A stretch of DNA of 64,000 bases, taken from contig JAPPFW010000051.1 of NCBI GenBank assembly GCA_028821575.1, positions 15,465 to 79,464 on the forward strand. The letters are read 5' to 3'. The stretch is from a bacterium. GTDB taxonomy: Bacteria; Actinomycetota; Acidimicrobiia; Spongiisociales; Spongiisociaceae. Of the stretch, positions 5,401 through 63,566 are shown piece by piece. Position numbers and translations under genes: made by a program. Under the pieces are notes generated by a model. That model did no database searches, was not told the origin of the DNA, and was given only the letters and a program-made list of their open reading frames with translations. Position 1 is the first letter of the stretch. Each line of letters starts with the position of its first letter.

Positions 5401-7716
5401 TCACTCCGGGTGTAACAGTTCCCACACCACGTCGGGGCGCAGCGGGGTCCGGTCGACCTGCACGTCGAATGGAGCGAGCGCGTCCGCGACTGCGTTGGCG
5501 ATCGCAGGCGGCGATGCCAGCGTTCCGGACTCGCCGGCGCCGCGCACCCCGAGCGGGGTGTCCGAGGGCGACACGATGTTGTCAAGGGTCAGCCGGGGCA
5601 CCTCCATCGCGGACGGGAGCAGGTAGGCGGCGAAGCTGGCGGACGGGACCTGGCCCGACTCGTCATGGCTGACCTGCTCGTAGAGAGCCTGTCCGATTCC
5701 CTGGGCGATCCCTCCGTGGATCTGGCCGTCGACGATTCCCGGATTGATACTCACGCCGTAGTCGTCCACCGACACGAAGTCGAGGATCTTCACCTGTCCG
5801 GTCTCCGTATCCACCTCGACGACGGCCGCGTTGGCGCCGAAGGCGAAGTTGACGTCGGGAGGATCGTAGAAGGCGGTGGCTTCGAGCCCCGGTTCGAACA
5901 TCGGCCCGCAGCGCTTGAGGAAGTGCGCCTCCTCGGCCACCTCCTGCCACGAGACCGTGGACTCGGGGCTCCCGGCGACGGTGAACGAGCCGTCTGCGTA
6001 CACGATGTCCTCCACAGCGGCTTCCAGCATGGCCGCCGCCACCTGCCGGGCCTTCTCCACCACGCGCTCGGCCGCTATCAGAGCGGCATGGCCACCGACC
6101 ACCGCGCCCCTGCTCCCGTGCGTGCCGCCCCCGAACGGGATCGTCTCGGTGTCGCCGTGCACCACCGTGATGTGGTCGAAGGGGATCTGCAGCCGGTCCG
6201 AGACGATCTGGGCGACGACGGTGTCCGAACCCTGCCCCTGGGGCGAGAGCCCCGAGTAGGCGACCGCCTTGCCCTGGGGGTCCACCCGGATGAGGGTCGA
6301 CTCGTGGCCGGGGAAGAACTTCATCGGGTTCCAGTCGTGGCCCGACGGGGAGAAGCCGCACAGCAGGTTGTAGGTTGCGAAACCGATCCCGATATGGCGA
6401 CCTGATCTCCTCGCCTCCGTCTGACGAGTCCGCACCGACTCGTAATCGACCAGCTCGACCGCTCTCCTCAACAGGGCGGGGTAGTCGCCGCCTGTGTAGG
6501 TCAGGCCGAATGGGGTCTGGTAGGGGAGTTGATCGGGAGCGACGAGGTTGCGCAGCCGGATCTCGACCGGGTCCATTTCGAGTTCGCGGGCCGCTTCCTC
6601 GATCATTCGCTCCAGCACGAAGGTGGCCTCGGCACGTCCGGAACCGCGCAATGCCTCGATGGACATCTTGTTGGTGAACACCTTCTCCAGCTTGATGTCG
6701 ACACTTGGAATGTCGTAGTTGCCGGTGAGCGTGTCGATCGTCAGGTCCGGAACGACGGGGGTGAAGAAGTGGAAGTAAGCGCCGAGATCGCCGACGAAGT
6801 GGCTGCGGAGAGCCAGGATTCTCCCCCGGGCGTCGAGGGCTAGTTCCGCATCGTGGATCTGGTCCCTGGCGTGGACGCCGGCCGTGAAGTTCTCGGTCCT
6901 GGTCTCGACCCACTTCACCGGGACACCCAGCTTCAGCGCAGCCCAGATGACCGCTAGCTCGTCGGAGTACAGGTTGAGCTTGCTGCCGAACCCTCCGCCC
7001 ACATCGGGGGCGACGATCCTCAGCTTGGACTCGTCTAGCTCGAAGATGTGAGCCAGCCAGGTGCGCAGGGTGTGGGGACCCTGGCACGACAGCCACACGG
7101 TCAGGTGGCCGGAGGCCGGTTCCGGCACTGCTAGGATGGCTCGCGGTTCCATGGGCGAAGCGGAGATGCGCTGAACCGCCAGCCGCCGCGTGACTACATG
7201 GGCGGCCCTGGCGAACGCCTCGTCGGGATCCCCGATCACCTTGTGTATCTCGCCGATCTTGTTGGTTCCCCAATCCGGATGCACCAGCGGCGCGCCGGGG
7301 GTGAGCGCCTCCCACGGATCAAGGACATGGGGGAGGGCTTCGTAGTCGACATCGACCCGCTCCGCGCCATTGACGGAAGTCCTCGGGTCTCGGGCCAGCA
7401 CCATCGCCACCGGCTCGCCCGCGTAGTGGACCCGATCCCCTGTAAGGGGGGTCCTCGGTGGCGCGTCGTCGGCTGCGGCGGTCGGGATCAGGGGCATCCC
7501 CGCAGCCGACTCGGATCCGGAGAACGCGGCGAACACACCAGGCGTCTCCAGTGCGTCCACCAGGTCGACGGATGTGATGTCGGCGTGGGCGAACGGGCTT
7601 CGGACGAACGTGGCGTGGACCGTGTGGGCCACGGTGAGGTCGTCTACGTACCGGCCTTGGCCCGCCAGGATGCGAGGATCCTCCTTGCGGGGTAGCCGGG
7701 CGCCGACGGCGGTCAT
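5401..7716 (-). CDS. xanthine dehydrogenase family molybdopterin-binding large subunit (CoxL-like, not form I)
   Basis: Starts [27 protein letters not shown]. The ATG at 7716 overlaps the small-subunit stop (ATGA). The track ORF extended to 8043 reads an alternative frame through coxS. The active-site loop reads ALRGSGR, not the form I AYRCSFR. Confidence 0.9.
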
Positions 7717-32882: not shown

Positions 32883-32939
32883 GGGCACAGGGCAGGAGGC
32901 AAGGGCCGGTGGCCGGTGGGCGGTGAGCACTGGGCACAG
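32883..32939. repeat. heptanucleotide tandem array (GCCGGTG-type units)
   Basis: GCCGGTG GCCGGTG GGCGGTG AGCACTG GGCACAG, preceded by GGGCACA GGGCAGG AGGCAAG. Roughly complementary to the array at 33101-33177. Confidence 0.75.
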
Positions 32940-33100
32940 GTCAACACCTACCGGGCGCCCGGTGTCTGATACCTGGCCCCTATCCACACCTCTTGATTTA
33001 TCTGATATCATGTTGTACAACGTAGGATCCCGTGTGTACTGACCAGGCCGTCGCCGGTTGTCGTTTATCGGTTGAATGGCAATCCCCAGGTTCGAATCCA

Positions 33101-33177
33101 CCAGCACCCAGCACCCAGCACCCGGCACCCGGCACCCGGCACCCGGCACCCAACACCCAACACCTAGCCCCTAACCC
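33101..33177. repeat. heptanucleotide tandem array, 11 units
   Basis: (CCAGCAC)x3 (CCGGCAC)x4 (CCAACAC)x2 CTAGCCC CTAACCC. The last units contain the TAG stop and the last codons of the amidohydrolase gene at 33164. Confidence 0.85.
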
Positions 33178-38740: not shown

Positions 38741-40297
38741 ATGGGAAAGATCACCTATGCCACCATGTCGGCCGACGATCCGGCTCTCCATCGGGCCTAC
38801 GAGGAGGGCCTGGCCGCCGCCACCTCCGCGATCGGGCAGACACATCCGCTGCTGATCAACGGCGAGAAGCGGTACACAGGCGAGACATTCACCGAGCGGT
38901 CCCCGATCGATTCGGACCTGGTGGTGGGGATCTACTCGCAGGCCTCCGATGACGACGTGGACGAGGCCGTAGCCGCCGCCGCCGCCTTCCAGCCGGAGTG
39001 GGAGGCGACTCCATGGCAGGAGAGACTGGCCATCATCCGGCGGGCGGCGGAGATCGTGGATGAGGAGACTCCCACCCTCGCCGGGTTCCTGACTCTGGAG
39101 GTCGGTAAGAACCGGCTCGAGGCGCTGGGCGATGTCTCCGAAGCGGTGGCCTTCATCGACTACTACTGCGACCGGCTCGAGGAGTCCGACGGGATGTCGA
39201 CCGCCATGGGACAGTACGGGGTGGGGGACACCAACCACTCCGTGCTGAGGCCCTGGGGAGTGTGGGCGGTCATCTCACCCTTCAACTTCCCGCTCGCCCT
39301 GGTCGCCAGCCCCACGTCCGCGGCTCTGCTGACCGGCAACACCGTGGTGCTGAAGCCGTCGAACACCGGCGCGCTGGGCTCGCTGCTTCTTGCCGACATC
39401 TACTCGCGGGCCGGGCTGCCCGCAGGCGCCCTGCAGGTGGTGACCGGGGGTGACGAAGCGGGTGACCGCCTCGCTCATCATGACCACGTGGACGGGGTCA
39501 CCTTCACCGGCTCCTACGACGTCGGGATGTACCTCTACCGGACGGTGGCCACCGGTCGCCCCAAGCCCGTAGTTTGCGAGATGGGCGGCAAGAACCCCGC
39601 GGTGGTGGCGGCCTCAGCCGACCTGGATCTGGCCGCCGAAGGGGTGATGCGGGCTGCCTTCGGGCTCTCCGGACAGAAGTGCTCGGCCAACTCCCGGGTG
39701 TATGTGGAGCGGCCCGCCTTCCGGGAGTTCCTGGACCTGCTCACCGAGAAGACCGATGAGATCCTCCTGGGGGACCCGCGCGATCGCGAGACCTTCCTGG
39801 GACCGGTGATCGACGGCGAGGCGGTGGACCGTTTCCGTTCCGCGGTGGAGGCCGTGAGAGAAGCTGGAGGCGAGGTGCTCTCCGGTGGCGAGGTGGTTAC
39901 GGATGGTGACCTGGCCAGGGGTAACTTCGTGCAACCCACGGTGGTGACCGCGCCGGAGGACACCTGGATCTGGGAGAAGGAGCTGTTCGTACCGTTCGTG
40001 GCGGTGACCTCGGTGGACTCTCTCGAGGAGGGGATCGACAAGGCCAACGACACGATCTTCGGGCTCACCGCCGGGGTCTTCGCCGGCACCGACGAGGAAG
40101 TCGATCTGTTCTTCCAGCGGATCCAGGCCGGGGTGGTATATGCCAACCGCCGGGCGGGGTCGACCACCGGGGCGTGGCCGGACATCCAGCCCTTCGGAGG
40201 TTGGAAGGGTTCGGGCACCTCGGGCGCCGGCAGCGGCGGTCCCTGGTACATGCGCTCCTACGTACGCGAGCAGGCCCGCACCCTGATCAGAGAGTAG
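38741..40297 (+). CDS. NAD(P)+ aldehyde dehydrogenase (P5C / 2-oxoglutarate-semialdehyde dehydrogenase-like)
   Basis: 518 aa with VCEMGGKNP (Glu) and GQKCSA (Cys) catalytic motifs. AAGGAA RBS. Confidence 0.9.
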   Translation: MGKITYATMSADDPALHRAYEEGLAAATSAIGQTHPLLINGEKRYTGETFTERSPIDSDLVVGIYSQASDDDVDEAVAAAAAFQPEWEATPWQERLAIIRRAAEIVDEETPTLAGFLTLEVGKNRLEALGDVSEAVAFIDYYCDRLEESDGMSTAMGQYGVGDTNHSVLRPWGVWAVISPFNFPLALVASPTSAALLTGNTVVLKPSNTGALGSLLLADIYSRAGLPAGALQVVTGGDEAGDRLAHHDHVDGVTFTGSYDVGMYLYRTVATGRPKPVVCEMGGKNPAVVAASADLDLAAEGVMRAAFGLSGQKCSANSRVYVERPAFREFLDLLTEKTDEILLGDPRDRETFLGPVIDGEAVDRFRSAVEAVREAGGEVLSGGEVVTDGDLARGNFVQPTVVTAPEDTWIWEKELFVPFVAVTSVDSLEEGIDKANDTIFGLTAGVFAGTDEEVDLFFQRIQAGVVYANRRAGSTTGAWPDIQPFGGWKGSGTSGAGSGGPWYMRSYVREQARTLIRE

Positions 40298-40402
40298 TGG
40301 TTAGTGGTTAGTGGTTAGTTAGAATAGTTGACGCCCAGCGTGGATAGGCAGCGCCACAAGCCACAAGCCACAAGCCACTAATCACAAGCCACAAACCACT
40401 AC
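40297..40402. repeat. bipartite heptamer-array hairpin filling a convergent intergenic spacer
   Basis: (GTGGTTA)x3 at 40297-40317, and (CCACAAG)x3 CCACTAA TCACAAG CCACAAA CCACTAC at 40354-40402. The arms are imperfectly complementary, and both flanking stop codons lie inside array units. Confidence 0.85.
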
Positions 40403-41586
40403 AAATGATCCAGGCTCCGGTCGACGAAGGTGCGGTCGGTTGAGAACGGCGAGTCCTGTATCCGGGAGGTGATCAGGTCCGCGAGGATCCTTCCCCCGGC
40501 CGGGGAACACATGATGCCGTGCCCGGAGTATCCGGTGTTCACCCACAGGCCGGCGACGGGAGTCGGTCCGATCAGGGGACGGTGGTCGGGGGTCATCGTG
40601 TACTGCCCGGAGTGGACGATCCAGGAGAACTCCCCGGCTCTCCAGGCCTCGCCCCAGAAGGGACTGATCCGCGCTGCGGCCTCAGAACGGGAGGGATCCA
40701 GCACCCGGAAGGCCATGTCGTGGTCGGGAGGCACATCCTCCACGGGATCCCGGCCCGGTCCGCGGGGAGCGGCGTCGAGCACGTGGGCTCCCGAGAGGAC
40801 GGGTCGCCAGTGCACCCCGGTGTCGTCGTCGATGGTCATCGGAGCGTCGGGCGGTACCCGGGCCAGATCGGGAATCACCACCTTGTGGCGCGGCTTCACC
40901 TTCAGCGGGAGGTCCACCCCTGCGAGAGCGGCCAGCTTGGCGGTGAAGGGTCCGGCGGCGATCACCACCTGCTCCGCCCGTATGCTTCCCCGGTCGGTGC
41001 CCACGTCGAAACCACCCGAGGGGAGCTCCCGGAGGGACACCACCCGGCAGGAGGTGTGGAGCGGGGCTCGTGATGCCCGCAGCAGACCGAGTGTCAGGGC
41101 CCTGGGATCGACGAATCCGTCCCCGGCGCGGTAGCGGGCCTGGACCACGTCGGGGCTGAGGTACGGGAACATGCGGCGGGCCTCGTCGCCACCGAGGATC
41201 TCGATGTCGGTCTGCCCCCAGGAGTGCTGGAGAGCCACGAGCCGCCGCTGCTCCCCGGCCCGCTTCTCGGAGGTGGTCGCCCAGATGTATCCCGGCTGCC
41301 GGATCCCCAACGGGCGGGAGTCCTGGCCGGTGATCGAGGCGAAGTCGAGGATCAGCTCGACCGACTCCCGCACCAGTTCGGTCTCCTCAGGATTGTCGAA
41401 CTGGAGGCGGAAGGCGCCGGTGGCCACGGGAGTAGTGAGGGCGGCTGGGACGGGCAGGGCTTCCAGAACCACCGTTGACAGCCCGGCCCGAGCCGCCCAG
41501 AACGCAGTGGACGCGCCCACCACCCCGGCGCCGACGATCACCAACTCTGCACCGGCGGGGATGGTGCCTTCAACGTTGGACAGCAT
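40399..41586 (-). CDS. FAD-dependent oxidoreductase (DAO family; D-hydroxyproline / D-amino-acid dehydrogenase-like)
   Basis: Dinucleotide motif VIVGAGVVGAS near the N-terminus. Start taken at MLSNVEG (ATG 41586). Confidence 0.85.
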   Translation of the reverse strand: MLSNVEGTIPAGAELVIVGAGVVGASTAFWAARAGLSTVVLEALPVPAALTTPVATGAFRLQFDNPEETELVRESVELILDFASITGQDSRPLGIRQPGYIWATTSEKRAGEQRRLVALQHSWGQTDIEILGGDEARRMFPYLSPDVVQARYRAGDGFVDPRALTLGLLRASRAPLHTSCRVVSLRELPSGGFDVGTDRGSIRAEQVVIAAGPFTAKLAALAGVDLPLKVKPRHKVVIPDLARVPPDAPMTIDDDTGVHWRPVLSGAHVLDAAPRGPGRDPVEDVPPDHDMAFRVLDPSRSEAAARISPFWGEAWRAGEFSWIVHSGQYTMTPDHRPLIGPTPVAGLWVNTGYSGHGIMCSPAGGRILADLITSRIQDSPFSTDRTFVDRSLDHL

Positions 41587-41894
41587 CCGGACAAAGGTAG
41601 TTGCGCGTCCGGCAACCCACAATTGGGCTTGAACGACCGAGGAAGGAGGAACCCGGCCCGGCATCCCTATCGATGGCCATCAGGGTCGATTGCAGCGCGC
41701 GCCACCCGCTTGCCCGGGGTCTCGAGCACCCTTCCGGGAGATGGATGTGACATGATCTGGACATGGTTGGCAAAACCGATCCGGCGACGATCACGCGTGG
41801 CCGCGCCATACCCGACCACGGCGCGGGTCCCGGCCGATCTGGAGCCAGATGCATCCGGGCACCTGGTGGACGATGGTGATCGCTAGGTATTTCG

Positions 41895-43034: not shown

Positions 43035-43111
43035 GGTCCCGACGAGGGGGGTGCCGCCGACTCATCGCACTGCACCCCTGATCGCACCGACGATCCGGGG
43101 CCGCCGGACGC

Positions 43112-44782
43112 TCAGTTGGTCGTTCCGGAGACCAGGTCGAGGGCACGGACGAGGAAGGTGGCCATCTGGTCCCGCGTTACGGGTCGCTCCGGGCAGTAGA
43201 GCAGCGGCTCGGTGCTGCAGCCCATGGTGACACCGGCCGCGGCCATGGCATCGATGTTGGCCTCATGGAGTGTGCCAGCGGTGTCGTCGAAGCCGGCCGA
43301 TTCCGCAGGGGGCAGATCGAACGCCCGGACCAGGAAGGCGGCCATCTGCGCTCTCGTGACCGGCCGGTCCGGGCAGTACCGGAGCGGTTCGGTGCTGCAA
43401 CCCGCGGTCACCTCTAGATCCGCCAGGCGCTCCACGTAGCCCGCCCACCAAGCCTCGGAAGCCACATCCTCGAATCGGGTCTGAGCCGCGGGAGCAGGCG
43501 GAGCCTGGTCGAGGACCCGGGTCATCCACACCGCCATCACCCAGCGGAGGAGCGGCTCGGCGGGGCAGATGAGCCCATCGCCGCACTCGGTACCTTCCAG
43601 CACACCCGCCTCGGCGAGCCGGTTGATCGACGGTTCGTGGACGCCGCCGTTGTCGTCGTCGAAGTGGTCCGACTCCGGCGGCTCGGCGGGGTCCTGACCC
43701 TCATCCTCATTGCTGTTGCCGCCGTCGCCGTTGCCCTCGCCCGCGCCGTCACCGTCGTCCGTGGTGGGATCCTCCGGGTCGTCGGGAGGGGCCATGCCGT
43801 CGATGGCTGTGATGTTGGAGGACTTGAGGCCCAGGCCGGTCCGCAACCCGTCCCCGGCGATCGTGACCGACACGGGTGCGCCGTCGCGGACGCCGCGGAA
43901 CCGGACCTGGGTGGGCGAGGACACAGACGCTCTCACCTCCAGGACCGCTTCGGTGACCTCGTCCCAGCCCAGCCAACCGGCGACGGCCGCCGCGCTCACG
44001 CGTTTCTCCCAGGAGGCGTGCGGGTTGCCCACCGCCGGGTCGAGGTCCCAAGGATCGGCGACCGGCCTCAGGTAGGGCCACTCGCGGGCCGACGTCCTGC
44101 CGTCCCGCACGGTGCGGAACCCATACACGTTGCTGCGGGTGATCCCGCCGGAGGAAGCCGAGAAGAACGTCTGCACGATCCCCCCCTTCGTGAACTTCTC
44201 CCACTCGTCGCCGAAGTAGGTGAGCACCCGGTCCCTGGTCGTCTCCACCCCGTCGAGCCACGGCTGCCCGTTCGACCGGGTCTCCTTCGCCCACCCGATG
44301 TAGTTGATGTCCCGCCAACTGTCGTAGAGATGGCACCAGCAACGGTCCTTGCGGGAGGAGCTGATCCCCGGATCCTCGTCAGGATCGGCGGGACGCGTCC
44401 CGGTCTCCGACTGGAAGAAGTTGAAAGCGGCGTACGAGCGGGCGGTGACGGCCTGGGCCTCGTTCACCCCCGGAGCTGTCCAGTCGTCGGGAAGTTCGGC
44501 GACACCCCTCAGGTAGTCCTCGAGCCCGACCGCCAGTACCACGTGGAAACCCACCTCGACGGGGTCGTCCCGGATCTTCAACTCACCGTGCCGGTACTCG
44601 CACTCCTCGCTGGCCCGGGAAACGCACAGCTTGCCCCTGTCCTCGCCGTGACGGAGCCGGACCCCCTTGGCGTCGGGCCACGATATGGCCGCCCGGCAGC
44701 CACCCGCCGTCCCCTGCTGTTCGCCCCCGTGGAAGAACCCGCACTCACCGGGGGCCGAGACGGCGGAACTCCCAACGTTCAC
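43112..44782 (-). CDS. SpoIID/LytB-domain protein with three C-terminal SLH-like repeats (3' fragment of a frameshifted gene)
   Basis: FFSASSGGITRSN SpoIID block. Three F.D...(A)GV..GC....YCP.RPVTR.QMA.FLVRA repeats. It continues the reading of 44745-45290 after a frame change at a G5 run. Confidence 0.75.
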   Translation of the reverse strand: MNVGSSAVSAPGECGFFHGGEQQGTAGGCRAAISWPDAKGVRLRHGEDRGKLCVSRASEECEYRHGELKIRDDPVEVGFHVVLAVGLEDYLRGVAELPDDWTAPGVNEAQAVTARSYAAFNFFQSETGTRPADPDEDPGISSSRKDRCWCHLYDSWRDINYIGWAKETRSNGQPWLDGVETTRDRVLTYFGDEWEKFTKGGIVQTFFSASSGGITRSNVYGFRTVRDGRTSAREWPYLRPVADPWDLDPAVGNPHASWEKRVSAAAVAGWLGWDEVTEAVLEVRASVSSPTQVRFRGVRDGAPVSVTIAGDGLRTGLGLKSSNITAIDGMAPPDDPEDPTTDDGDGAGEGNGDGGNSNEDEGQDPAEPPESDHFDDDNGGVHEPSINRLAEAGVLEGTECGDGLICPAEPLLRWVMAVWMTRVLDQAPPAPAAQTRFEDVASEAWWAGYVERLADLEVTAGCSTEPLRYCPDRPVTRAQMAAFLVRAFDLPPAESAGFDDTAGTLHEANIDAMAAAGVTMGCSTEPLLYCPERPVTRDQMATFLVRALDLVSGTTN

Positions 44783-46022: not shown

Positions 46023-46270
46023 GTGGTTAGTTCCAACGGGTTCGTGAAGTGGTCAGTTGTCAGTTGTCAGTGGGCAGTGATAGGTTGGGTCATGTTACCT
46101 GCCTCGGTGGTGATACTCCCGTTTCCGAGTCACGTCTCGGGCGGCTTTCATGATCGGAAGGATTCGGAGCCCCGTGCCGAGAACCCAGGAGTAGTGGTTG
46201 AGAGGTGTGTTGTGCTGTGTTGTTACCGAGGGCAAGGGAATCCTTACCAGCCGATCCCTTGGAAACCACT
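46023..46270 (+). repeat. copy 1 of a hairpin-closed structured intergenic element (candidate ncRNA or MITE-like)
   Basis: Homologous to 31648-31418 (-). It contains six in-phase heptamers (46049-46090), the hairpin CCGAG-TCACGT-CTCGG (46125-46140) and the 3' hairpin GGCAAGG-GAAT-CCTTACC (46231-46248). Its ends pair: GTGG/CCAC and TTCCAA/TTGGAA. Confidence 0.6.
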
Positions 46271-51614: not shown

Positions 51615-53501
51615 TTACCGTCCTCGATACGGTGACCAGGCCGGCCTATTGGCACCTTCGGCCAGCAGCCAGGATTCCGAACTGGCGATGTCCACCACCC
51701 AGACCTCCGAGCGGCCATCGCATACGGTGGAGTAGGCCAGGTGGCTCCCGTCGGGTGACCATGCCAGAGCCCATCCGAAGTCTCCGGTCACCGGACGGCC
51801 ACCGGACCCGTCGGCATCCATCACCATGACACGGTTCTCGACGTAGGCGATGCGGTCTCCATGCGGAGACCACACCGGGCTCGAACCGCTGGACAGCTGC
51901 CGCGGGCTGTCGCCGGAGGGATCCGTCACCCAGACCTCGTTCGTGAGGTCGTCAGCCTTCTCGTAGGCGATACGGCGCCCGTCCGGCGACCACGCAGGCG
52001 CTAGACCGTCGATCAGCCGCCGGTGGTGGCCAGCGTCGGAGGCCACTATCCGAACCTCGCGACCGGAGCCGGCAACCCACCGGTTGTAGATGATGTGGGC
52101 GCCGTCCGGTGACCAGCTCAGGTTCAAGCCGCCGTAGCTGGCATTCGGCCGCCAGTCGTAGGTGAGCCGCCGCCGGGTACCGGTCTCCGCTTCCACCACC
52201 CAGACTGCTCCACCATGCCCGGAGTAGGTGATGAGATGCCCGTCCGGCGACCACGCAGGTTCCGAACCCCTGCGAGCCAACCGCCGGGCTCCGGCGCCGT
52301 CGGCGTCCATCATCCAGAGTCCGACACCCTCCCCATCCGTTCTAGTGTAGGAGATGCGGCTTCCGTCCGGCGACCACACCGGTCCCCGACCGTCGGCAAG
52401 CCGCCGGTGACCGGCCCCATCAGCCACCCATATCTCGGGAACGTGCTCGACCCTTCTGGAATAGGCGATCCGGCTTCCATCGGGCGACCAGGCCGGATGG
52501 CCTCCTCGCGCGGCCAGCTTCCGCCGGTCCCCCCGGTGGGTGTCCACCACCCAGAGGTCGAATACGTACTCGTCACGCCTCATCTCCAGGTAGATGATGT
52601 GGCTCCCATCCGGAGACCAATGCGGGCCCGAACCGTTGCGGGTCAACCAACGCCGGTTGCTGCCGTCCGCGTCCATCACCCAGATCCCGGAGCGCTCACC
52701 TCCGTCGCGGTAGGCGATACGGCTCCCGTCCGCCGACCAGACCGGCTGGGTACCGCCGACCAGCCACCGCCTGTCGCCGCCGTCCGCATCCATGACCCAC
52801 ACCCCGCGATCCGGACCCGACTCGTAATAGGCGATACGGCGCCCGTCCGGCGACCACTCGGCCTCCGATCCTCGGTCGGCGACCAGCCGGTGATCGCTGC
52901 CGTCCGCGTCCATCGTCCAGATCCCGCCGTTGTTGTAGGCGACACGGTTCCCGTCCGGCGACCACACCGGGGCCCAACCGTCGGTCAGCCGCCGCGGGTC
53001 GGTGCCGTCCGCGTTCATCACCCAGACCCCGACAGGGTCGTCCCACTCTTCGTAGGCGATGCGGCTCCCGTCGGGTGACCACACCGGGCTCGAGCCCTGG
53101 TCGGCCAGTCGCTGCGGGCTCGCGCCGTCGGCGTCGATGGTCCAGATCCCGCCGCTGTCCGATTCTTCGTAGGCGATGCGGTTCCCGTCGGGTGACCACA
53201 CCGGGTTCGAGCCGTGGTCGGCCAGTCGCTGCGGGTTGGCGCCGTCCGGGTCTGCCACCCAGATCCCGGCACGGCTGTGGTCCGGTCTCTGGCTGTTGTA
53301 GGCGATAGTCCCCGAACCGAAAGCAGCCGTATTCCCCACCGCCGAGAGGGTTACCGGGGAACCACCCTCAGCGCCCTCCCGCGAACACGCATCCTTGCCC
53401 GCCGCGCTCTCGGGCACCCCCACCGACCACCCCACCATGGCGGCGGCGGCCAGGAACCCTGCGAGCCACTTACGGCCAGGTCGCAGACTGCGTCCCGTCA
53501 T
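51615..53501 (-). CDS. secreted PD40/TolB-like WD40-type beta-propeller repeat protein (about 13-14 blades)
   Basis: Start MTGRSLRPGRKWLAGFLAAAAMVG (ATG 53501). 13-14 repeats of the W-S-P-D-G-x-R-I-A-Y motif. Confidence 0.85.
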   Translation of the reverse strand: MTGRSLRPGRKWLAGFLAAAAMVGWSVGVPESAAGKDACSREGAEGGSPVTLSAVGNTAAFGSGTIAYNSQRPDHSRAGIWVADPDGANPQRLADHGSNPVWSPDGNRIAYEESDSGGIWTIDADGASPQRLADQGSSPVWSPDGSRIAYEEWDDPVGVWVMNADGTDPRRLTDGWAPVWSPDGNRVAYNNGGIWTMDADGSDHRLVADRGSEAEWSPDGRRIAYYESGPDRGVWVMDADGGDRRWLVGGTQPVWSADGSRIAYRDGGERSGIWVMDADGSNRRWLTRNGSGPHWSPDGSHIIYLEMRRDEYVFDLWVVDTHRGDRRKLAARGGHPAWSPDGSRIAYSRRVEHVPEIWVADGAGHRRLADGRGPVWSPDGSRISYTRTDGEGVGLWMMDADGAGARRLARRGSEPAWSPDGHLITYSGHGGAVWVVEAETGTRRRLTYDWRPNASYGGLNLSWSPDGAHIIYNRWVAGSGREVRIVASDAGHHRRLIDGLAPAWSPDGRRIAYEKADDLTNEVWVTDPSGDSPRQLSSGSSPVWSPHGDRIAYVENRVMVMDADGSGGRPVTGDFGWALAWSPDGSHLAYSTVCDGRSEVWVVDIASSESWLLAEGANRPAWSPYRGR

Positions 53502-53805
53502 TCGAGTTCTATTCCTTGGCGCCGGATTGGGGCCGGCGCTCGCTGATACCGACCATAGCCGCCGCTCACAGCTACGAAGGCCCCGCATTGTCCGGGCAAC
53601 GCGTCGCGGCAGGCGGTGCGGTATCGGCGTTTACGTTCTGATACAGGCGGCTAGTACACACCATGGTGGTAGTTCCGGTTAGCGAGACCACCCGGCAGTT
53701 GGTCTTGTGGGGAAGCGAGTCGGCTCAGTGTTCGGTAATCTTGATGGCCGTGGTTGACCAGCGGATTCCGGAGTACGCCAACCCTGCGCCGGACGCAGCC
53801 GGTCG

Positions 53806-55943: not shown

Positions 55944-56048
55944 GGTCAGTGGGCAGTGGTGGATGGTGGATGGTGGGCAGCGAGAAGGGCTACCAGCCAC
56001 CAGCCGTCAATGGTCGTCTACCAACTCACTGACAACTGACAACTGACA
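55944..56048. repeat. 105-nt tract of 15 in-phase heptamers
   Basis: GGTCAGT GGGCAGT GGTGGAT GGTGGAT GGTGGGC AGCGAGA AGGGCTA CCAGCCA CCAGCCG TCAATGG TCGTCTA CCAACTC (ACTGACA)x3. The outer units are complementary (GTCAGT/ACTGAC). Confidence 0.85.
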
Positions 56049-56164
56049 ACGGAGAAGGGATCGCCTATGAAGAACATGTCCGGTAGGTCCCCATTGGTTG
56101 GCGGGCTTGGCTGCCCGGCCGTCCCGCCCGGTCCGTTGCCTCTCTCCGGCTCGGGAGTGCTTCC

Positions 56165-62604: not shown

Positions 62605-63566
62605 ACGAGTCAACAAGGCGAGCGGTCCTGGGCGCCGGCATCCCCGCCGCGGTGGTGGGCGCGGGCCTCGGCCCGTACCTGGCCTACCGGTCCGACCTCC
62701 CGGATCGGGTGGCGAGTCACTTCGGCATCTCCGGTAGGGCAGACGACTCCATGACACCCGAGCTGTTCCTCGTCGTTGTCGGGGTGCTGATGGTGCTCGG
62801 CCTGGGGATGTGCATGGCCGTCGCCCTGATCCGGCGGAGGCTCCAGCCGATGGTCGTGCTGGGCGCGTCGTTCATCGGCGCGTTCGTCGGAGCGCTGGCG
62901 GCAGGAATACTCGCCACCACGGCCATCGGCCAGAGAGGGCTGGAGCGGTGGCAGGAGGCGACGCTGTCCCCCTGGGCCCTGATCCTATGGATCGGCGGGA
63001 GCCTCGTCGTCGGTAGCGCTGCGGCCTGGATCGCCTCGTCGCTTCCGACCGCCGACGATCCCGGCACCGGGATGGTACCGCCGATCATGGAACTCGCCCC
63101 CGGCCAGCGGGCCTTCTGGACTTCCTGCCTGTACGCCAGGTGGCCGCTGCTGCTGGGCCTGGTCGCCCTCCTCGTAGCTCTGGGTCTAGCCCAACTCACC
63201 GAAATGTGGATCGGGATCGTCCTGCTGGTTCCCGCGATAGCAATGACCACCTTCAGCCGTATACGCGTCACAGCCGACCGGTCGGGATTGCAGGTCCGTT
63301 ACGGGTTCCTCGGTTGGCCCCGCACGTCGGTGCCCCTGCGCCATATCGCCACCGCCCGGGCCATAGACGTCCGCCCCACCGAATGGGGCGGATGGGGATA
63401 CCGGGGCAGCCTGACCCTCATGAAACGCGCCGCTGTGGTCCTGCGCGCCGGTCCCGGCATCCGCCTCGATCTGCACGACAGCAAGGTCTTCGTCGTGACC
63501 ATCGACAATCCCGAGATCCCCGCCCGACTGCTGAACGCCGAAGCCTCCCGCCTGACAACTACTTGA
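62601..63566 (+). CDS. DUF1648-type membrane protein with C-terminal PH-like (bPH) domain
   Basis: ATGA overlap with the GntR stop. N-terminal DRVASHFGISGRAD motif typical of DUF1648/SdpI-like proteins, followed by 5-6 TM segments. Confidence 0.65.
   Translation: MNESTRRAVLGAGIPAAVVGAGLGPYLAYRSDLPDRVASHFGISGRADDSMTPELFLVVVGVLMVLGLGMCMAVALIRRRLQPMVVLGASFIGAFVGALAAGILATTAIGQRGLERWQEATLSPWALILWIGGSLVVGSAAAWIASSLPTADDPGTGMVPPIMELAPGQRAFWTSCLYARWPLLLGLVALLVALGLAQLTEMWIGIVLLVPAIAMTTFSRIRVTADRSGLQVRYGFLGWPRTSVPLRHIATARAIDVRPTEWGGWGYRGSLTLMKRAAVVLRAGPGIRLDLHDSKVFVVTIDNPEIPARLLNAEASRLTTT

Follow-up and report, generated by a model that had tools for sequence, protein, structure and literature searches.

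The 101-nt convergent spacer between an aldehyde dehydrogenase (ALDH) gene and a flavin adenine dinucleotide (FAD)-dependent oxidoreductase gene, within a 64,000-nt stretch of contig JAPPFW010000051.1 (GenBank assembly GCA_028821575.1; hereafter, the window), is filled by two inverted arrays of tandem heptanucleotides that take in both stop codons. We find that these arrays belong to a genome-wide family with the consensus unit GTGGYYR, that the family has a nearly absolute polarity relative to genes, that it is patchily distributed among relatives and that it turns over rapidly at orthologous sites. With moderate confidence, we read the element as two short simple sequence repeat (SSR) arrays of this family, each anchored on a stop codon with its G-rich strand in the sense of its gene, and the hairpin that they are predicted to form as a consequence of gene convergence. 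The element is a gene-less member of the bacterial intergenic heptamer repeats already known as GGGAATC in Xanthomonas, GGGGAYT in Nostoc and short tandemly repeated repetitive (STRR) sequences in cyanobacteria; what is new here is the lineage and the unit only.

The genome that contains the window (G000; other G-numbers denote the genomes compared with it) is a metagenome-assembled genome (MAG) of 4.14 Mb in 100 contigs with 65% G+C, and the closest named relatives of its ALDH come from sponge-derived Acidimicrobiia MAGs, "Candidatus Spongiisocius" among them. The ALDH gene, identified as pyrroline-5-carboxylate-dehydrogenase-like from its open reading frame (ORF), its translation and a Pfam Aldedh match on an identical protein, occupies 38741-40297 of the plus strand and ends with a TAG stop at 40295-40297. 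The left, G-type array (40295-40319, plus strand) is in phase with this stop and includes it: the three GTGGTTA units themselves span 40297-40317, beginning with the G of the TAG, and Tandem Repeats Finder (TRF) reports 3.6 copies of TAGTGGT at period 7 with 100% matches. It is followed by a non-repeat core, or loop, of ~33-34 nt (40320-40353) that is about 55% GC and, when compared to the other array-bearing spacers, unique in the genome. The right, C-type array (40354-40402, plus strand) consists of seven units, namely three of CCACAAG (40354-40374) and then CCACTAA, TCACAAG, CCACAAA and CCACTAC, for which TRF gives 6.7 copies with 82% matches; seen from the minus strand, this is TAG-TGGTTTG-TGGCTTG-..., which makes it an array of G type that begins at the oxidoreductase stop. 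The oxidoreductase gene, assigned to the DAO family from its ORF, translation and protein annotation, lies on the minus strand at 40399-41664, and its TAG (CTA on the plus strand, 40399-40401) is at a position common to 11 orthologues. This re-reading agrees to the base with the array anatomy of the initial annotation, including its placement of both stop codons inside the repeats.

An assembly artefact was ruled out, as the identical 101-nt spacer is present in two independent MAG assemblies that are one single-nucleotide polymorphism (SNP) apart over 3 kb, and similar arrays occur in complete long-read genomes of relatives. An exact-protein look-up returned one near-identical strain (1 SNP/3 kb) with equal unit numbers, which indicates stability at that distance only and says little on the rate of slippage. 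Exact-pattern scans of metagenome contigs with both gene ends produced no match to other strains.

To the initial proposal that the arrays form a family, a genome-wide search for tandem repeats lends strong support. TRF identified 590 arrays of period 7 in the whole genome, compared to 197 of period 6 and 135 of period 8. Three-quarters of them (444/590, 75%) are intergenic, though intergenic DNA makes up 23% of the genome (by our own rough gene calls, which comprise 2919 genes and 77% coding sequence), while arrays of the other periods (6-12) lie mostly within genes, with an intergenic share of 17-32%. Similarly, four successive GTGG motifs with 3-nt spacers occur at 137 genome sites, as against 0-5 sites for spacers of 1, 2, 4, 5 or 6 nt. 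Aligning 363 arrays yielded the consensus GTGGYYR, with G94, T77, G74, G93, Y82, Y99 and R82 (% of units); GTGGCTT, GTGGTCA, GTGGCTG, GTGGATG and GTGGTTA are the commonest units. In all, 175 different canonical units occur. The loops have a G+C content of 51%, compared to 64% in array-free spacers. Unit homogeneity along the arrays showed no growth direction, as TRF boundaries sharpen both edges. Period-7 arrays form 18 of the 200 contig ends; the arrays are among the chief reasons why the assembly of this MAG breaks, and a unit count taken at a contig end is a minimum.

The arrays are placed and oriented with respect to genes. Array density is 0.73 per kb in convergent spacers, 0.40 in tandem spacers and 0.18 in divergent spacers, and 20% of convergent spacers contain an array. 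The median distance of an array from a stop codon is 0-1 nt, and among arrays at most 3 nt from a stop the G-rich strand lies in the sense of the gene in 116 cases and the C-rich strand in 4; C-type arrays in sense orientation sit mid-spacer. The stop next to a stop-abutting G-type array is TAG in 75% of cases, compared to 32% of all genes. This anchoring is also apparent without a repeat finder: the first 14 nt after the stop recur at lag 7 in 71 of 2898 genes but in one gene each at lags 5, 6, 8 and 9, and the stop trinucleotide itself recurs at both +7 and +14 in 26 genes (21 with TAG), compared to 0-1 at control lags. Where a spacer contains two arrays, the G-rich one comes first in 44 cases and the C-rich one in 2, whichever strand is read. 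Likewise, a recognisable inverted partner was found downstream of 52 and upstream of 3 of the 248 G-type arrays, using a search by unit matching (duplex energies of upstream versus downstream flanks do not discriminate in this G+C-rich genome). At the locus, the two stop-anchored arrays are inverted and able to pair because the ALDH and oxidoreductase genes converge.

RNA folding of the spacer predicts the long imperfect hairpin that had been proposed for it (40294-40402, plus strand), in which 40294-40319 pairs with 40377-40402 to give 24 bp in 26 positions. The plus-strand fold has an energy of -44.0 kcal/mol, compared to -24.5 +/- 3.0 in dinucleotide shuffles (z = -6.55), and the minus-strand fold one of -39.7 kcal/mol (z = -3.49). 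The plus-strand stem is built as 9+6+9 bp and includes two A.A mismatches as well as two G.U pairs; its base holds both stop codons, and the three inner CCACAAG units fall in the loop region. We attribute the pairing of the arms to the shared consensus and the fixed G-then-C order of arrays rather than to selection at this locus. When arms were compared by their consensus units, the mean unit distance between cognate arms was 2.51 mismatches, versus 2.39 for shuffled partners, and duplex energies of real arms showed no cognate advantage over shuffled partners (permutation p = 0.78). The locus's own arm pair ranks 16th of 45, as the left arm would pair equally well or better with 15 other C-arrays.

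Orthologous sites record the order of events. The ALDH C-terminus, ...LIRE*, stops at an identical codon position in every close orthologue, whichever of TAA, TAG and TGA serves as the stop, and the oxidoreductase C-terminus, ...DHL*, ...DHI* or ...DQI*, ends at the same codon in eleven orthologues. Since the same stop positions are found in array-free relatives (...LIRE* on one side, ...DHL* and ...DQI* on the other), the stops pre-date the arrays, which settles a question raised by the initial annotation. The spacer itself differs from genome to genome. In a congener (G005), the two genes converge in the same way and are 33 nt apart, and this short spacer is repeat-free. The closest complete genome (G003) has about 330 nt at the site, comprising (GTGAATG)x26 that starts in a TGA stop in phase with the unit, an AT-rich core, and then CCGGCCA, CCACAAG and CCATTCA units that run up to, and end on, the stop of the oxidoreductase gene. 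The spacers of G002 and G006 are larger and different again. The orthologous spacers contain other heptamer units or no hairpin, rather than conserved ordinary terminators, the finding that would have spoken against a repeat family.

Similar turnover was observed at two other spacers of the window, which, when compared to relatives, have same-site arrays with other units or an array in one species only. Unit number and sequence therefore change fast between related species at one site, both here (G000, G003 and G005) and at these two spacers. One further member of the family, recognised by TRF at 32883-33177, has GCCGGTG-type and CCAGCAC/CCGGCAC-type arrays around an AT-rich core, and its G003 orthologue has (TGGTGAA)x22 and (ACCGGCA)x11. 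TRF also identified (TGGTGGA)x3 ... (ACTGACA)x3 in a tandem spacer at 55944-56050. The ALDH-oxidoreductase spacer is a rearrangement hot spot.

Two observations on gene ends were made alongside these comparisons. At the site corresponding to 43035-43134 of the window, G003 (L096; joined L093-L098 position 62940-63050) has (CTACCAA)x5 abutting the orthologue of the minus-strand gene 43112-44782; this orthologue ends ...ALSTLVL* and not ...ALDLVSGTTN*, so that the array appears to supply a new stop and the protein is three residues shorter. Separately, some relatives have an extra small gene between the ALDH and oxidoreductase genes, encoding a thiol-disulfide-oxidoreductase-like protein (MGVTLFYN..CP.C..; L001:4607-4900; G002, L106, joined L105-L108 39750-40000).

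The family is unevenly distributed. Period-7 arrays number 14.2 per 100 kb in G000, 15 in G003, 3.8 in G002, 0.8 in G005 and 1.2 in G006, and their density is near background in G329, G325, G010 and G007. Of 301 Acidimicrobiia genomes from across the class, only 2 are rich in the GTGG-N3 pattern. At family level, two genera have some members in which the pattern abounds and congeners from which it is missing, and the units GTGGTCA and GTGGCTG also occur in the second of these genera. The inverted heptamer-array element as such is widespread across phyla. By chance, inverted pairs of heptamer arrays were encountered beside the ALDH homologue in another Acidimicrobiia genome (L009:2885-2955), in a Bradymonadia genome (Microvenator; L053:3000-3085) and in a Verrucomicrobiae genome (L060:4388-4545 and 6624-6690).

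The initial annotation knew of such arrays only as cyanobacterial STRRs and suggested that the family may be undescribed. The lineage and the unit GTGGYYR are indeed new, but the repeat class is not, as arrays of the same architecture have been reported from Xanthomonas and Nostoc (PMC4692102). In that work, Rehm et al. (2015) found 186 and 183 GGGAATC-type arrays in two Xanthomonas species, resembling the GGGGAYT arrays of Nostoc PCC 7120. The Xanthomonas arrays are 89-93% intergenic, are separated by a mean of 28 nt from the ORF upstream and 160 nt from the one downstream, have the G-rich strand as the coding strand downstream of ORFs, form inverted pairs in the case of 70-75 arrays, are rare between divergent genes and are highly variable between the two species, with no function found (PMC4692102). 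The arrays described here share with these bacterial intergenic heptameric SSRs the head-to-tail tandem arrangement of 7-nt units, a genome-wide period-7 excess concentrated in non-coding DNA that amounts to hundreds of intergenic arrays per genome, proximity to the end of the upstream ORF with the G-rich strand as coding strand, frequent inverted pairs, scarcity between divergent genes and fast turnover. They differ in their unit, in their host, which is an actinobacterial sponge symbiont, and in usually starting on the stop codon (0-1 nt, compared to a mean of 28 nt).

Because GTGGYYR units contain GG runs at most, they would form no canonical three-tetrad G-quadruplex, and the four or more G3+ runs of G-quadruplex heptamers are absent. 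Cyanobacterial STRRs are likewise tandem heptanucleotide arrays dispersed in non-coding DNA, but their unit sequences and phylum differ; with an Acidimicrobiia MAG as host and GTGGYYR as unit, the present arrays fall outside STRRs in the strict sense. They also lack the hallmarks of phase-variation SSRs, since the repeat lies 3' of both genes and unit numbers are equal in two near-identical strains. The survey of long SSRs (5-11-nt units) by Mrázek, Guo and Shah (2007), as summarised in PMC4679880, found heptamers to be the commonest long SSR in most genomes, with three Actinobacteria among the ten richest, and proposed slippage favoured by a 7-nt polymerase contact as the cause. The abundance of heptamers, and their occurrence in non-pathogens with larger genomes, Actinobacteria included, match our observations, while stop-codon anchoring, G-then-C order and a consensus unit were not described by that survey. 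TAACTGA repeats of marine Beggiatoaceae and cyanobacteria (MacGregor, 2015; PMC4679880) are also abundant intergenic heptamers with a fixed orientation relative to genes and a patchy phylogeny, but they lie upstream of start codons, have one fixed unit and are almost never inverted.

These findings favour a fast-evolving repeat that is probably non-adaptive and tolerated after gene ends. Under this reading, the arrays would owe their origin and their changes to replication slippage and to exchange between arrays, which would maintain a single genome-wide consensus; they would have taken pre-existing stop codons into their first unit, and would persist after gene ends with nothing essential being there. 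If the hairpin acts at all, the likeliest place is the 3' ends of both transcripts, where a 24-bp RNA stem immediately behind the stop could bring about a halt or undergo cleavage, much as RNase III cleaves the stems of intervening sequences in 23S rRNA. We regard any such 3'-end effect as incidental and not as the reason for the element's existence.

Several observations weigh against this interpretation. Slippage alone leaves the genome-wide consensus, the sharing of GTGGTCA and GTGGCTG with a second genus and the near-absolute G-then-C polarity unexplained, and these point to a sequence-specific agent, whether a protein, a mobile element or selection. Additionally, the stem at the locus, with 24 of 26 positions paired, is better than a 4-of-7 core match would yield. 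With complete genomes for array-rich and array-free congeners, one consensus unit, a near-absolute polarity and anchoring on the stop codon, this is a good clade in which to ask what creates heptamer arrays.

The most interesting lead is an association with PF05635, the "23S rRNA intervening-sequence protein" family. A single gene of this family is present in the genome (104 bits), outside the window (G000 contig C1:128049-128482; L117:1435-1868), where it is wedged between phosphoglycerate-mutase-like and secG-like genes. It is bracketed by heptamers: the upstream gene ends in TAG-(TTGCTAG)x2, and (CTACCAA..CTAGGAA)x5 precedes the ATG of the next gene downstream. The same-site cassette is found in G003, G002 and G325 and is decayed in G326. 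These observations raise the possibility, which we hold to be doubtful, that the locus element is a gene-less relative of a PF05635 cassette (the protein being an Avd-like four-helix bundle), whose inverted heptamer arms would form a stem in the RNA for RNase III to cut, while the protein may bind or propagate the arms. Beyond the position of the genome's only PF05635 gene between arrays, this explanation draws on the finding that period-7 arrays flank about 10 of the 12 PF05635 loci of the family. In an independent sample of 301 Actinomycetota genomes, 26 contained PF05635, and arrays lay within about 100 nt on both sides of 16 of the 29 loci, on one side of 7 and on neither side of 6, with flanking units that are different in every lineage and complementary between the two sides; by hand count, arrays are about 13 times as dense at the borders of the genes as in the flanks farther out. 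Within the window's genus, gene and arrays co-occur, G000, G003 and G002 having PF05635 and five array-poor genomes lacking it. RNase III is encoded in the genome, and the closest solved structure to the PF05635 protein is from Xanthomonas (XCC0516, 2GSC).

Precedent comes from Coxiella burnetii's intervening sequence (IVS), where variable-number tandem GACAGAT heptamers stand before the S23p ORF, the terminal stem is about 28 bp and RNase III cuts at the first repeat (PMC4990558). The 23S rRNA intervening sequences with an S23p/PF05635 ORF in Coxiella burnetii and Leptospira (PMC4990558) resemble the locus element in being hairpin-armed inserts; unlike them, the locus element is ORF-less and lies between protein genes, and its processing by RNase III would be by analogy. 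Inverted heptamer arms stand against the flanking genes both at the locus and at the gene-bearing cassettes, yet the 33-nt loop of the locus contains no PF05635 ORF and no trace of the gene. One gene would also have to account for about 250 array-bearing spacers. Moreover, G323 and G013 of the sister genus have many hits to the GTGG pattern but no PF05635; G329 also lacks the gene, although its 97 overlapping pattern hits probably come from a few long arrays (a 100-kb sample was at background, with 2 arrays); conversely, G011 has four copies of the gene and no GTGG arrays. The within-genus correlation may represent a single phylogenetic event, and the four-helix bundle has no known function in mobility. 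We found no open paper linking PF05635 and heptamer arrays in general. It is conceivable, though we would offer it only as a tentative idea, that heptamer-array hairpins and PF05635 cassettes constitute one cross-phylum element class, most copies of which have lost or never had the gene, and that the (pentameric) protein, RNase III or both act on the stem. If true, this would explain the heptamer repeats of Xanthomonas, cyanobacteria and many other bacteria, as well as the strict G-then-C polarity.

We also weighed the suggestion of the initial annotation that the hairpin acts as a bidirectional transcription terminator, or as a 3'-end stabiliser, selected to stop polymerase arriving from either gene or to block 3' exonucleases on both mRNAs. 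Like intrinsic terminators and repetitive extragenic palindromic (REP) sequences and bacterial interspersed mosaic elements (BIMEs), the locus element is an extragenic imperfect palindrome of the kind commonest after gene ends and between convergent genes; unlike them, it has no U-tract or conserved REP sequence, and its arms are tandem 7-mers. Its stem is strong on both strands, the density of arrays in convergent spacers is four times that in divergent ones, and arrays are found immediately downstream of stops. The U-tract that follows the G+C-rich hairpin of an intrinsic terminator is absent on either strand, although actinobacterial terminators are often without one. A consensus terminator scan of 39800-40900 on both strands returned 0 terminator-like sites, so that the convergent spacer filled by the hairpin has no other such site, and no Rfam family passed the gathering threshold anywhere in the window or reached E <= 1 within 40200-40500.

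Signs of selection on pairing were not detected. The arms show neither covariation nor, as described above, better pairing with cognate than with non-cognate partners. Among 28 two-armed tandem spacers, in which G.U asymmetry could reveal the transcribed strand under selection, the sense strand folded better in 12 and the antisense strand in 16 (p = 0.24). Most arrays are single, without a partner; the G003 arms are unequal, with 26 units against about 10; the congener G005 has a 33-nt spacer and no hairpin, and the element is missing in relatives. Selected bidirectional termination is thus unlikely, and the terminator reading, as a hypothesis, is rather disfavoured, selection for the hairpin having gone undetected in several tests.

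Binding by a factor with heptamer periodicity is a markedly weaker candidate. The array could offer sites to, for example, a cold-shock-domain protein that occupies GU-rich RNA once per 7 nt, or could control Rho loading, the RNA being rich in G and poor in C right behind the stop and its C-rich arm being masked through pairing. Consensus positions 1, 4 and 6 are nearly invariant, comparable to the conserved positions 1-4 and 6 in Xanthomonas, the arrays keep a strict polarity with respect to transcription leaving the gene, and Rho is encoded in the genome; CspB, as reviewed in PMC4679880, binds heptamers with one protein per unit. Close relatives manage without arrays, however, which makes any such function dispensable, and units differ between related genomes; we therefore consider this explanation improbable. 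Two more specific candidates were rejected. HutP-type UAG-N4 sites fit (UAGUGGU)x3 at the locus but were ruled out as a general explanation, since the commonest units GTGGCTT, GTGGCTG and GTGGATG are without AG, and integron attC-like sites were ruled out because their core sequences and the order of these differ.

Least probable of all is that the locus is a remnant or part of a miniature inverted-repeat transposable element (MITE) akin to the long, 230-260-nt element at 46023, with arrays that would represent terminal repeats in iterated form or footprints left by excision at a TAG target. The initial annotation had linked the locus to that element, and some likeness stands: the two share a 10-mer, the long element (46023-46270) starts TAG|GTGGTTAGTTCC and ends ...AACCAC, so that its ends agree with the locus in their GTGG...CCAC polarity, and heptamer runs lie inside it (AGTGGTC/AGTTGTC at 46048-46079, plus strand, by TRF). 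The link is weak, however, as the 10-mer in question is one of the family's common units and other copies of the long element start with ATGGTTAGTTCC; GTGGTTAGTT has five occurrences in the genome, always in heptamer context. The patchy distribution among relatives, and another MITE flanked by TAG exactly at the oxidoreductase TAG in G006 and G007, would also suit a mobile origin. Against it, the locus core matches no other array-bearing spacer, which excludes a conserved loop motif or mobile core, and across 226 array-bearing spacers the sharing of non-repeat sequence is limited to a few small clusters; given the unique loop and the few clusters, whole hairpins are not copies of one mobile element. 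Furthermore, comparison to G005 and G003 reveals no clean boundary between empty and filled sites and no target duplication, the 175 canonical units are too many for a fixed footprint, and the locus does not show the combination of several homologous-core copies, terminal inverted repeats, target duplication and empty sites in relatives that marks a MITE.

The MITE of G006 and G007 (L085:2704-2925, L086:2704-2925) is about 220 nt long, has the terminal inverted repeats CCCCGATTATTCATG / CCTGAATAATCAGGG and lies directly on the TAG of the oxidoreductase orthologue, with a TAG at either end. Targets that contain TA are, in this G+C-rich clade, mostly stop codons.

The practical value of recognising these repeats lies mainly in annotation, because the arrays break short-read assemblies, absorb stop codons and can shift C-termini. 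In addition to the heptamer arrays, the window contains a 117-nt tandem repeat at 52935-53273 (2.9 copies, 78% matches, TRF score 394), which lies within the minus-strand ORF 51615-53588.

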